Positions 1,946 through 32,000 of a stretch of DNA of 32,000 nt are shown piece after piece (the stretch's first letter is position 1; every line of letters begins with the position of its first letter). The stretch lies in NCBI GenBank assembly GCA_030428565.1, contig JAUIDR010000026.1, positions 12,754 to 44,753 on the forward strand. The letters are read 5' to 3'. The translations under genes and the position numbers were made by a program. Origin of the DNA: Alphaproteobacteria bacterium (GTDB lineage Bacteria > Pseudomonadota > Alphaproteobacteria > UBA7985 > JAUIBT01). The notes under the pieces are model-generated. The model was not told the origin of the DNA and did not search any database. It was given only the letters and a program-made list of their open reading frames with translations.

Positions 1946-2006
1946 GCCTCGGCTTAGTTGAGCGCCGCTTGGCGGCGGCGACATCGCGCGGTTCGACCGC
2001 ATCAAA

Positions 2007-2040
2007 CGGCTGGTCCCGATTGGGGCCGGCCGTTTTTTTT
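2007..2040 (+). terminator. Intrinsic terminator downstream of rplL
   Basis: CGGCTGGTCCC (2007-2017) pairs with GGGGCCGGCCG (2022-2032), giving 11 bp including 2 G-U pairs, with a GATT loop. T8 follows directly at 2033-2040. Confidence 0.8.
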
Positions 2041-2075
2041 GTGCCCTGATGCTGCGGGCCAAATTGGCAGAAAAC

Positions 2076-2104: not shown

Positions 2105-2178
2105 GTAAATCACAAAATTTCGCTTGTCTGTCCCACTGGCCTATTCTGAAATCAGGTCCGTGCAAAAGGAAAGAGATC

Positions 2179-2988
2179 ATGCGGGCGTTCGATCGCGTCT
2201 TGGTTGCTATGTTGCTGTTGTCCAGTCTCTTGGCTTTGGGCACCTTCACGCCCGCGCAATCGCAAGGGCTGAAATTCATCAAGGGTATCGGCGATTCTTG
2301 CGCGGGGCCTTACGACGAATGCACGCCAACGGCCTTCTGCAACGAATATAAAATCTGTCAGCCCAAGTCGGTGCAGACCATTCGCGGCATTGGCCAATAT
2401 TGCGGCGGCCCCAACGATATCTGCCAAGACGGGGCCTTTTGTAACGCCCAACGCGTCTGTCAGCGCCGCGCCAGTGGCGGCAACATTCGCGGCATCGGTG
2501 AGTCCTGTGGCGGCGGCCAAGACCAATGCCAGACCGGCAGTTTTTGTAACGAATACCGTGTCTGTGAGCGGGCAGGGGCCCGTTTGGTCAAGCGCTTGGG
2601 CGAGAGTTGTCGTAGCTCCAACGAAATCTGTGAGCCAGGAACCTACTGCAACGACCAACAAATTTGCGCGCAGCAAACGATCCGAGTTCTGCGCGGTATC
2701 GGCGATTATTGCGGGCGCCCCACCGACGAGTGCGCCTTTGGTAGCTTCTGCAACGCGCAAAAACGCTGCGAGGCTAGCGTCCTAAAAATTATCCGCGGCA
2801 TCGGCCAGTTCTGCGGCGGCCCGAATGATGAATGCGCGCAAGGCAGCTTTTGCAACGATCAACAGCTTTGTGAGAGCAGCGACACCATCAAATTCGTTAA
2901 AGGTGTTGGCGAATCATGCGGCGAACCCAACGAGATTTGCTCGCAAGGGGCTTATTGCAATATCGATTTTATCTGCGAGTCGTACTAG
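2179..2988 (+). CDS. Secreted cysteine-rich tandem-repeat protein of unknown function (269 aa, 28 Cys)
   Basis: The track ORF 2086-2988 opens with a TTG. The internal ATG at 2179 has SD AAAGGAAAGAG at 2165-2175 and yields a classical Sec signal peptide: MRAFDR + VLVAMLLLSSLLALG + TFTPAQSQ, with no lipobox Cys. The mature part consists of seven modules of the form [IVL]-[RK]-G-[IV]-G-x-x-C-x4-[DE]-x-C-x2-G-x-[FY]-C-N-x4-C. This periodicity exists only in this frame. Confidence 0.85.
   Translation: MRAFDRVLVAMLLLSSLLALGTFTPAQSQGLKFIKGIGDSCAGPYDECTPTAFCNEYKICQPKSVQTIRGIGQYCGGPNDICQDGAFCNAQRVCQRRASGGNIRGIGESCGGGQDQCQTGSFCNEYRVCERAGARLVKRLGESCRSSNEICEPGTYCNDQQICAQQTIRVLRGIGDYCGRPTDECAFGSFCNAQKRCEASVLKIIRGIGQFCGGPNDECAQGSFCNDQQLCESSDTIKFVKGVGESCGEPNEICSQGAYCNIDFICESY
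2269..2985 (+). repeat. Seven diverged in-frame tandem coding repeats of 90-111 bp (30-37 aa modules)
   Basis: Module boundaries, checked codon by codon: R1 2269-2379, R2 2380-2484, R3 2485-2586, R4 2587-2688, R5 2689-2790, R6 2791-2895, R7 2896-2985. The DNA copies differ at many synonymous positions (compare R2 attcgcggcattggccaatattgcggcggccccaacgat with R6 atccgcggcatcggccagttctgcggcggcccgaatgat). The duplications are therefore old, not a recent expansion. Confidence 0.85.
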
Positions 2989-3022
2989 TCAGCCGCGAAA
3001 GAGCCAAAAAATCGTTCCACCA

Positions 3023-3056
3023 GGGGTTGCAGCACTTTGCCGCAGACCCCTTTTTT
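3023..3056 (+). terminator. Intrinsic terminator downstream of the Cys-rich repeat gene
   Basis: GGGGT...ACCCC outer stem (3023-3027 / 3046-3050) with inner TGC/GCA pairs. T6 follows at 3051-3056, 35 nt after the stop codon. Confidence 0.65.
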
Positions 3057-3099: not shown

Positions 3100-3128
3100 T
3101 TGTCAAGTCTCTATCCAGCCCCTATACA
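3100..3128 (+). promoter_or_regulatory. Candidate dedicated promoter for rpoBC (TTGTCA-N17-TATACA)
   Basis: TTGTCA at 3100-3105, a 17-nt spacer, then TATACA at 3123-3128, just downstream of the 3023-3056 terminator. This is a motif match only. Confidence 0.3.
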
Positions 3129-3405
3129 AGGCGGCCCGACACGAATGGATGGTGTCGCCGCAACTCCCCTCTCTTCTATTTTCGTGTAGCGCTGGCTTTG
3201 CGCTGCCAATCACTTTGGTGATTTCTTTGACAACACGAGTTTCTTGGTAAGCAGTTAGCTTGTCGGAGTGCGCAGCGACCCCCGATTTTCGGCGCTTGGT
3301 CGACTGCGCTGTTGGCGTTTGTCTCGGTCGCATACCAGACCGACGATAGCCCGAACCGACCCCCTGATTGCCCGCCATCGAGGCTCCCAAATAAATGGTA
3401 GGTCC

Positions 3406-31199: not shown

Positions 31200-32000
31200 A
31201 TCCACGCCAGGGCGCGCATGGGCTCTGATTTGCCTGTTTTGGGTAGTAGATTGGACCGTTTCCAGCGATTTTCGATGCACCTATTCTATGGTTTGTCGCC
31301 GTTCATGGAAGACGAGACGGTCAAAGTTGTAGGCCAAGTTAGCCAGTGTCAGTTTAGCCTTGGCTCTAGCCAACCCAATGGTGCGTATGAACAGGCCATA
31401 GCGGTTCTTCTGGTGGGCAAAGACGTGCTCAACCTTGGCTCTGACAGAAGACTTCTTTGCATTCGCCTGTGATGTTGCCTGGGGCATGGGCTTGCCCTTC
31501 GGCTTTTTGCGATGGATTTTGCTCGTCATCATGCGCTTGGCGAGCCAGCCCTCGTTGTTCGTCGAACGATAGGCTGTATCTGCCCAGACACTCGAAGCCG
31601 TATTGCTTTTGTCGATAACATGCTTCAGCTGACGGCCATCACTGGCTGCTGCCGAGGTGACATGGCCTTTGCGGATAAAGCCATAGCGCCGATCAATGCT
31701 GATGTGCGTTTTATAGCCGAAGGTGGGGGTTGCGATCTGAGGCAAAGGGCTGCCGTCCGGGCGGTAGCGGATCTTGCCCCCTATCTTCAGTGTCCACCGG
31801 GCCGAGGTGTCCTTTTGGGCCGCCTTGTTGGGTTTGTCAGGCCAAATCTGCTCAGCGCTTTTGCCCTCTTTGATGGCCGCCTTCTCGTCCTCGGTATTGC
31901 GCTGCTTCGGGGCTTGGACCAACGAGGCATCGACGATCTGCCCACCCATGGGCAAGTAACCCGCTGAGCGCAAGTGCTGATCAAAGGCTTGGAACAGCGC
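31200..32000 (-). mobile_element. IS5-family insertion sequence, one end only. The left boundary is approximate and the rest lies outside the window.
   Basis: This rests on the transposase gene above. The stop codon is at 31281-31283. IS5-group elements usually have tens of bp to about 100 bp between the transposase stop and the terminal inverted repeat. The end should therefore lie somewhere around 31160-31280. Without the partner inverted repeat I cannot fix it. Confidence 0.5.
31281..32000 (-). CDS. IS5-family (IS5-group) DDE transposase, C-terminal ~239 codons; the ORF continues past the window end
   Basis: The track ORF 31281-31973 'starts' at an internal TTG. The same frame stays open to position 32000 (ALFQAFDQH-L-RSAGYLPMGGQIVDASLVQAP...). 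The motifs are typical of IS5-group transposases: GGQIVDASLV, KDTSARWTLK, FGYKTHISIDRRYGFIR, WADTAYRS, RAKVEHVFAHQKNR, LANLAYNF. Confidence 0.88.
   Translation of the reverse strand, partial: ALFQAFDQHLRSAGYLPMGGQIVDASLVQAPKQRNTEDEKAAIKEGKSAEQIWPDKPNKAAQKDTSARWTLKIGGKIRYRPDGSPLPQIATPTFGYKTHISIDRRYGFIRKGHVTSAAASDGRQLKHVIDKSNTASSVWADTAYRSTNNEGWLAKRMMTSKIHRKKPKGKPMPQATSQANAKKSSVRAKVEHVFAHQKNRYGLFIRTIGLARAKAKLTLANLAYNFDRLVFHERRQTIE

Follow-up and report, generated by a model that had tools for sequence, protein, structure and literature searches.

What kind of protein is encoded by a cysteine-rich repeat gene lodged between rplL and rpoB in an uncultured alphaproteobacterium, and what might it do there? 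The gene was found in a stretch of 32,000 nucleotides of contig JAUIDR010000026.1 (assembly GCA_030428565.1, Alphaproteobacteria bacterium), hereafter the window, where a coding sequence (CDS) with an ATG start occupies positions 2179..2988 of the forward strand, stop codon included, and encodes 269 amino acids. The data presented below solidly establish the gene and its repeat as real. As for its role, it is on balance probable that the product is an exported, disulfide-stabilised string of seven mini-domains resembling the disulfide-directed β-hairpin (DDH), which binds its target multivalently.

Translation of positions 2269-2985 of the forward strand reproduces exactly the seven modules listed in an earlier note on this DNA, which had been made from the sequence alone. 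The mature protein is built of seven copies of the framework C-x6-C-x5-C-x5-C with a period of 34-35 amino acids, the modules themselves being 30-35 amino acids long. All lie on the forward strand: module 1 spans residues 34-67 (2278..2379), module 2, residues 68-102 (2380..2484), module 3, residues 103-136 (2485..2586), module 4, residues 137-170 (2587..2688), module 5, residues 171-204 (2689..2790), module 6, residues 205-239 (2791..2895), and the C-terminal module 7, residues 240-269 (2896..2985), after which no domain or sorting signal was found. The count of 28 Cys given in the note is correct, and these residues make up 10.4% of the 269-residue protein and 11.7% of its mature part. When the residues were shuffled 20,000 times, the framework occurred 0.03 times on average and twice at most, and each module was recognized with 41-63 bits by a profile constructed from the other six. 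The DNA copies are indeed well diverged, with 49-69% nucleotide identity between them, and Tandem Repeats Finder detected no array over the module copies.

One Gly, the four Cys, and the Asn following Cys3 are invariant in the seven modules of the window and in all 21 orthologous modules, and Asp or Glu two residues before Cys2 and Phe or Tyr before Cys3 are present in seven out of seven window modules. The invariant framework proposed previously thus holds in most positions and fails in two, as Arg replaces the first Gly of G-x-G in module 4, and Thr replaces the Gly before [FY]-C in module 1. Similarly, the description of the protein as a signal peptide followed by modules is right overall, except that Gly30 (2266-2268) sits between the signal peptide as quoted and the first module. 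The linkers have a conserved hydrophobic/basic pattern, x-I-[RK]-[VIF]-[ILV]-[RK]-G-I-G.

When GTDB was scanned with one genome for each species, two orthologues were found, one in an Alphaproteobacteria metagenome-assembled genome (MAG), L006, with 81% identity, and one in an uncultured Rhodospirillaceae MAG, L007, with 72% identity. In both, the seven modules keep their order and none of the 28 Cys is lost. For the pair of window and L006, the ratio of nonsynonymous to synonymous substitution rates (dN/dS) amounts to 0.056, or 0.046 when only the mature part is taken, at dS > 2, and comparisons involving L007 show saturation of synonymous sites. The dN/dS estimate that the note had suggested is thus about 0.05, in line with its claim of purifying selection on a folded module, and conserved homologues, whose lack it had taken as a possible sign of a non-functional frame, do exist. 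The mean identity of module cores is 79% for orthologous and 49% for paralogous modules, hence the array is older than the divergence of these genomes. Moreover, every module position has its own conserved identity, the mean among orthologues being highest for module 6 (94%), followed by modules 5 and 7 (81-83%), and lowest for module 4 (57%). The identical sequence is also present in short contigs from five public sequencing runs, ERR3428546/7, SRR24075712/14, and SRR28113955.

These data bear directly on the possibility that we are dealing with a spurious open reading frame (ORF) or a non-functional relic in the rplL-rpoB spacer. It could be argued from the lack of database homologues of the full-length protein and of a promoter consensus upstream. 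On the other hand, the frame is intact in three genomes at 72-81% amino acid identity with saturated synonymous sites and dN/dS of about 0.05, its start codon, Shine-Dalgarno sequence and signal-peptide cleavage region are conserved, and the searches came up empty because the collection searched does not contain the protein. The probability of such an artefact is practically nil, and we regard it as excluded by the selection data. Recent horizontal acquisition was rejected as well, since the base composition is native (GC content of the CDS 0.565 and GC content at third codon positions 0.665, in line with the adjacent genes) and no plasmid or phage relatives were found (tblastn against plasmids and phages gave no match). 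In the best reading, the gene is genuine and has been inherited vertically in an uncultured, Rhodospirillaceae-like lineage of alphaproteobacteria.

The Shine-Dalgarno sequence AAGGA can be read at 2166..2170 of the forward strand, 8 nt ahead of the ATG; the AGGA(G/A) core before the ATG is kept in the L006 and L007 loci, and the remaining upstream spacer is not. An upstream TTG start at 2086 was rejected, since conservation covers the ATG and the Shine-Dalgarno sequence but not the extension that this start would add. An antisense ORF of 202 amino acids (2152-2760, reverse strand) is interrupted in the orthologous loci and has a codon adaptation index of 0.45, as opposed to 0.63 for the gene and 0.70-0.82 for most ribosomal genes; it was dismissed as a shadow ORF.

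Residues 1-29 (2179..2265, forward strand) read as a signal peptide of the Sec/signal peptidase I type, in which a hydrophobic core of 15 residues separates a basic n-region (R2, R6) from a c-region of small residues (…TPAQSQG). The hexapeptide P-A-Q-S-Q-G is invariant in all three orthologues, and cleavage probably follows AQS or SQG. Inspection of the signal peptide revealed neither a lipobox Cys nor a twin-arginine motif. Conservation of these features across the orthologues supports the earlier assignment of a Sec signal peptide. The mature protein of 240 amino acids is acidic, with an isoelectric point of about 5, and has no His, Met, or Trp.

Does the protein belong to any family described so far? 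Pfam has none for the protein or its orthologues, the only match being to UL128 in L006, at the level of chance and below the cut-off (E 0.009). Of the seven modules searched singly at E up to 10, only module 4 matched Pfam, twice and again at the level of chance (E 0.02 and 0.22). NCBIfam, PADLOC, and PHROGs gave nothing meaningful, phmmer with the full protein found no match in PDB, and no enzymatic or other domain was detected by the Pfam and NCBIfam scans. The candidate status of an undescribed family therefore survives the searches of Pfam, NCBIfam, PADLOC, PHROGs and PDB sequences, none of which returned a significant family hit; the confident profile hit to a characterized family that would have spoken against novelty did not appear in Pfam with either the full protein or the single modules. 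Scans of JGI metagenomes produced no match, and neither a bacterial DDH or knottin repeat family nor a gene insertion between rplL and rpoB is described in the literature searched, which also yielded no paper on the accessions of the sample and the MAG. Further, nothing was found in a word-indexed collection of 5.8 billion proteins with the full protein, with a two-module profile, or with a broad module profile combining window-type modules with copies from other bacterial proteins. However, that collection itself lacks the protein and both orthologues, which makes these empty searches uninformative rather than negative, and the word-indexed search missed two relatives present in the collection (P0002 and P0004, see below) even with a profile that included them, so that queries with short Cys-rich repeats are seemingly lost.

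An exhaustive phmmer search against 1.84 billion representatives gave six weak matches, two of which (P0001 and P0005) were discarded as spurious low-complexity repeats. Tandem modules of the same kind are present in four proteins (P0002, P0004, P0003, and P0006), with E to the query from 3e-9 to 1e-4. Their modules follow the pattern v-G-x-G-E-x-C-x4-6-C-x2-G-L-x-C-N-x4-C and stand directly behind lipoprotein-type signal peptides. For instance, P0002 is an alpha-amylase of 1171 amino acids with a lipoprotein-type signal peptide, in which the modules lie between the N-terminus and the carbohydrate-binding/alpha-amylase part. Pfam covers the repeat region in none of the four relatives, and none of them carries a name. 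They differ from the 269-residue protein in having extra catalytic or carbohydrate-binding domains and a shorter first loop, and they are not orthologues. Judging by these sequence matches, the module is sporadic in bacteria and uncatalogued. Among the relatives, P0006 has sub-threshold matches to EB, DUF7107, and Stig1, and the alpha-amylase P0012 (contig in GCA_016648615.1), which carries the module as well, adjoins a second alpha-amylase and a protein of 1077 amino acids with faint matches to the EB-module and FG-GAP. There are hints here that the bacterial module may be linked to EB-type cysteine modules of eukaryotes.

The architecture of the relatives also argues for a passive role, in which the protein would not be a specific binder but would serve the cell envelope as a rigid, disulfide-braced fibre or spacer, perhaps with cross-links to itself or other proteins. 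In the relatives, the modules directly follow lipoprotein-type signal peptides, and in one of them they are placed in a stalk-like manner before the carbohydrate-binding/alpha-amylase part; besides, the residues common to the modules are determinants of the fold (Gly, Cys, the aromatic residue, Asn) with no obvious binding motif. In contrast, the 269-residue protein has no lipobox, anchor, or cargo domain, and the even number of four Cys per module favours pairing within modules. The loop residues of modules 5-7 are 81-94% conserved while module 4 drifts, which goes beyond the needs of a spacer. Hence we consider a purely passive element rather unlikely.

The preferred interpretation, that of DDH-like modules, rests on the framework, on the predicted fold, and on the resemblance to solved toxins. 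The DDH consensus, Cys-x4-19-Cys-x2-(G or P)-x2-Cys-x4-19-Cys, describes a two-stranded hairpin with two disulfides and no knot (PMC3381931). In these terms the module reads C-x6-C-x2-G-x2-C-x5-C, and the consensus is satisfied by six out of seven modules in the window (module 2 among them), six out of seven in L006, and seven out of seven in L007, that is, by 19 of the 21. The departure in the window is module 1, which has Thr in the G/P position, as in L006, the corresponding residue of L007 being Gly.

An AlphaFold2 model of the full-length protein made without an alignment has a predicted local distance difference test score (pLDDT) of 62 and places a hairpin around Cys3 and Cys4 in all seven modules. 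A two-module model starting with module 5, for which the window's own modules served as the alignment, reaches pLDDT 82.8; its strands 19-21/26-29 and 53-55/60-63 surround Cys3 and Cys4, so that an antiparallel β-hairpin is predicted in each module, and the linker stretch is modelled as an extra β-strand. In the Foldseek search against PDB, single modules matched inhibitor cystine knot (ICK) toxins of spiders (1nix, 2mqf, 6gft, 5epm, and others) with a template modelling (TM) score normalized to the target of 0.6-0.76 and a root-mean-square deviation (rmsd) of 1.0-2.4 Å over approximately 30 columns, as well as the DDH toxin U1-LITX-Lw1a (2kyj; target TM 0.73, rmsd 2.1 Å, 34 columns, E 2.2). 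The tandem arrangement drew matches to DkTx, SIBD-1, IGFBP, and LDL-receptor repeats. In turn, the broad module profile was compared with 177,635 distinct PDB sequences, and its top match was the scorpion toxin LaIT1 (2lds, E 0.0053), followed by LITX (2kyj, E 0.006), with all four Cys aligned, so that the two solved native DDH toxins head the list; in a control with the reversed alignment, which keeps the composition and mirrors the Cys spacing, the best PDB match had E 6.5. In the HMMER alignment to hainantoxin-I, the Cys of the module fall on Cys II, III, V, and VI of the ICK. Since U1-LITX-Lw1a is paired C1-C3/C2-C4 (PMC11891777) and the module Cys align both to these ICK positions and to LaIT1/LITX, the pairing C1-C3 and C2-C4 can be inferred for the modules. 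Taken together, a DDH-like two-disulfide knottin core for each module is plausible but marginal.

Several observations weigh against this interpretation or weaken it. Every Foldseek match has E > 0.01, as the domain is only about 30 residues long, and such matches indicate resemblance and are no proof; likewise, the profile matches in PDB are marginal (20 bits) and dominated by the Cys columns. The alternative pairing C1-C2/C3-C4 may be considered for the modules. Comparison of the window-type and the relatives' module profiles by hhalign gave a probability of 96.7%, which speaks for the module being present elsewhere in bacteria but is partly circular, the second profile having been built from proteins found with the query, and the modules of the amylase homologue could be mere spacers. 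Finally, a consensus scan found no sigma-70-like promoter upstream of the gene, and the neighbourhood of ribosomal and RNA polymerase genes offers no hint of the target.

The closest counterparts among known systems are the scorpion DDH toxins LaIT1 and LITX. Their Cys spacing is C-x5-C-x5-C-x5-C, compared with C-x6-C-x5-C-x5-C here, and they share with the module Gly or Pro three residues past Cys2 and the C-N formed by Cys3 and the residue that follows it; e.g., C-Q-P-P-L-K-C-N-K-A-Q-I-C of LaIT1, looked up in PDB, can be set beside C-A-Q-G-S-F-C-N-D-Q-Q-L-C of the module. The identity is only about 20%, which is compatible with homology or convergence. The toxins are single animal peptides of 36 residues acting on insect or ryanodine-receptor targets, whereas here seven modules are fused in a bacterial protein.

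The ICK toxins of spiders, namely, hainantoxin-I (1nix), TRTX-Hhn2b (2mqf), and cyriotoxin-1a (6gft), resemble the predicted backbone of the module with target TM 0.65-0.76, and there is local sequence similarity between K-G-F-G-K-S-C...C-x-G-x-x-C-N of an ICK toxin and R-G-I-G-E-S-C...C-x-x-G-x-F-C-N of the module. Still, knottins have six Cys (I-IV, II-V, III-VI) forming a threaded knot, whereas all 21 orthologous modules have four; the pair Cys I-Cys IV is missing, other residues occupying these positions, and no knot is possible, so that the modules are not knottins in the strict sense. No Pfam toxin family was matched by the protein or by its single modules.

Two further comparisons are more distant. 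The IGFBP mini-subdomain (1boe/1h59), G-x-S-C-G-x5-C-A-Q-G-L-x-C, has the spacing C-x6-C-x5-C in common with the module, and the spider protein SIBD-1 (3zxb) is the top Foldseek match of the two-module model with probability 0.66, the likeness to IGFBP/SIBD-1 being non-significant (TM about 0.4). In PDB, mini-IGFBP-5 matches the module profile with E of only 0.08-0.4 over 18 residues, and Pfam yields no IGFBP match. The IGFBP domain has the GCGCC motif and 12 Cys, and its fourth Cys follows a loop of approximately 19 residues, compared with five residues in the module. As for the Dickkopf N-terminal and colipase-like domains, whose resemblance to the module had been suggested in the earlier note, they also are small disulfide-rich units with a C..G..C hairpin motif, and colipase-fold proteins have been discussed as containing DDH-like substructures. 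However, the Dickkopf N-terminal domain has 10 Cys, compared with four in the module, Dickkopf_N (PF04706) had no match among the full-length protein and its orthologues (E up to 1) or among the single modules (E up to 10), and Foldseek gives a target TM of only 0.30 to the N-terminal region of Dkk4. This suggestion is thus not upheld, and the DDH, i.e., the two-disulfide knottin core, is the better analogy.

How could such a protein function? Following export by the Sec system and removal of the signal peptide, oxidation in the periplasm would produce 14 disulfides, all within modules. Each module of approximately 34 residues would fold as a DDH, with Cys3 and Cys4 on the strands of the predicted hairpin tied to Cys1 and Cys2, as the alignment to the toxins suggests, and the linker strands would join the modules into a protease-resistant string of beads that is fairly stiff and lacks any catalytic domain. 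The string might then bind a target outside the cytoplasm, for example a polymer of the envelope or of the extracellular space or else a protein oligomer, in a multivalent, non-enzymatic manner based on avidity. Multivalent binding is proposed by analogy with tandem cysteine-rich repeat peptides and because there is no catalytic domain. All functionally characterized peptides of this type show high avidity for their targets, an example being DkTx (6cuc, 5irx), a tandem knottin whose copies act by bivalent avidity (PMC6262176). These peptides belong to the secreted cysteine-rich repeat proteins (SCREPs), an architecture class reported to include many unreviewed bacterial sequences, none of the bacterial members being functionally described in the same paper (PMC6262176). 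The protein considered here has the hallmarks of a SCREP, a signal sequence, as read from the gene, and self-similar tandem cysteine-rich domains. Nevertheless, SCREPs are a descriptive class and not a homologous family, and the characterized ones are two-domain animal toxins or inhibitors. The strong constraint on modules 5-7 suggests that these hold the main binding surface.

The same likeness to toxins could point to a polyprotein precursor, whose modules are cleaved after export into knottin-like peptides of approximately 30 residues serving as toxins, antimicrobials, or signals. Indeed, a single module is similar in size to a free-standing DDH or ICK toxin and also has a similar Cys framework and predicted fold, and the linkers between modules are short and variable. 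However, the linkers contain no conserved cleavage motif and show instead a strand-like pattern modelled as a β-strand, each module position has a conserved identity of its own across the orthologues, and the adjacent genes are rplL and rpoB, with no protease, transporter, or immunity gene next to the repeat gene. Processing into separate peptides is, accordingly, distinctly unlikely.

Given the amount of Cys, one may also think of a thiol buffer, in which 28 reduced Cys sequester soft metals or oxidants in the manner of metallothioneins. The fraction of Cys in the mature protein (11.7%) and its acidic character agree with this, but there are no CxC, CxxC, or CC motifs, the only Cys spacings being x6, x5, and x5, and both His and Met are absent. 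Exported Cys in the Gram-negative periplasm are normally oxidized by DsbA, and the Cys spacing, the pattern of Gly, aromatic residues, and Asn, and the predicted hairpins all fit disulfide-stabilised folds. Metal or redox buffering by free thiols is thus highly improbable, and a multivalent binder made of DDH-like modules remains the interpretation we prefer.

The window covers the ribosomal super-operon region, in which rplJ, rplL, the gene, rpoB, rpoC, rpsL, rpsG, fusA, and tuf are followed by the S10/spc/alpha clusters up to rplQ. Both the window and L006 have the gene flanked by rplL and rpoB, and in the 2-kb contig of L007 it directly follows rplL. The spacers between rplL and the gene are 233-302 nt long and can barely be aligned apart from a terminator-like hairpin and the Shine-Dalgarno sequence. 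In the window, this hairpin is a predicted intrinsic terminator at 2004..2043 (forward strand) with a G+C-rich stem of 14 bp and T8 (folding free energy, dG, −29.1 kcal/mol, z = −5.0), which ends rplJ-rplL and sets the upstream boundary of the gene's own unit. A strong hairpin with a T-run follows rplL in all three genomes, though its distance and sequence differ (approximately 5770-5800 in L006 and 720-745 in L007). On the 3' side, a terminator-like hairpin with T6 lies at 3022..3056 of the forward strand (dG −18 kcal/mol, z = −3.3, with none of 200 shuffles folding as well); the consensus terminator scan missed it because the predicted stem has an internal loop and a bulge, and its sequence is not conserved in L006.

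Some 45 nt beyond the 3' hairpin, promoter-like boxes TTGTCA (3100-3105) and TATACA (3123-3128) are separated by 17 nt. Both boxes are kept in L006 although the sequence of the spacer differs, and they form a conserved promoter-like site that could serve rpoB. With hairpin terminators on both sides, a conserved Shine-Dalgarno sequence, and this promoter-like site downstream, the gene looks like a small insulated transcription unit of its own.

Past these boxes, the leader before rpoB (approximately 3129-3325) is about 95% identical to that of L006 and contains a perfect hairpin, AATCAC-TTTG-GTGATT, at 3208-3223. It has no Rfam match, nor did Rfam give a hit anywhere else in the window; the region 3100-3405 may represent an rpoBC leader or a regulatory RNA. 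The longest ORF of rpoB starts from GTG at 3268 (1439 amino acids), but judging by the alignment with L006, translation really begins at ATG 3406, which gives 1393 amino acids in both genomes. At the other end of the cluster, rplK-rplA is not found upstream of rplJ; positions 1-561 match the 5' part of amn, the gene of AMP nucleosidase, on the minus strand, and positions 610-943 form a conserved rplJ leader. L006 (1-4710) has two ChaC-like genes and a LysR regulator between amn and rplJ, and the window is without them. Shortly after rplQ, where the ribosomal cluster ends, there is a DDE transposase ORF (31281-31973, reverse strand; Pfam DDE_Tnp_1, E 1e-14), which may run past the end of the window.

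Both the SCREP architecture and the DDH fold are already known, and what is uncatalogued is the bacterial seven-module family and its module. According to a paper of 2024, free-standing DDH peptides are limited to arachnids and a single sea-star peptide, and it is still debated whether the cystine knot arose from the DDH or gave rise to it (PMC11891777, PMC4942781). One could go further and regard the module as a true homologue of the arachnid DDH/knottin core, making this the first bacterial family, and the protein as a multivalent effector acting on a membrane protein of a eukaryotic host. We consider this very unlikely; if the homology were true, either the DDH/ICK scaffold would have originated long ago in prokaryotes, or genes would have passed between bacteria and animals. 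The practical value of the finding is limited for want of a target. The location of the gene for a secreted accessory protein at a fixed place inside the highly conserved rplJL-rpoBC cluster, insulated by terminators, is unusual in itself. The module would make a new domain family, so far uncatalogued, that deserves an entry in Pfam, and the protein, as a natural substrate with 14 presumably non-consecutive disulfides, would place high demands on oxidative folding in the periplasm. If the proposed fold is true, the occurrence of seven DDH-like modules in a conserved bacterial protein, along with those in other exported bacterial proteins, would extend the scaffold beyond the range now known for it.

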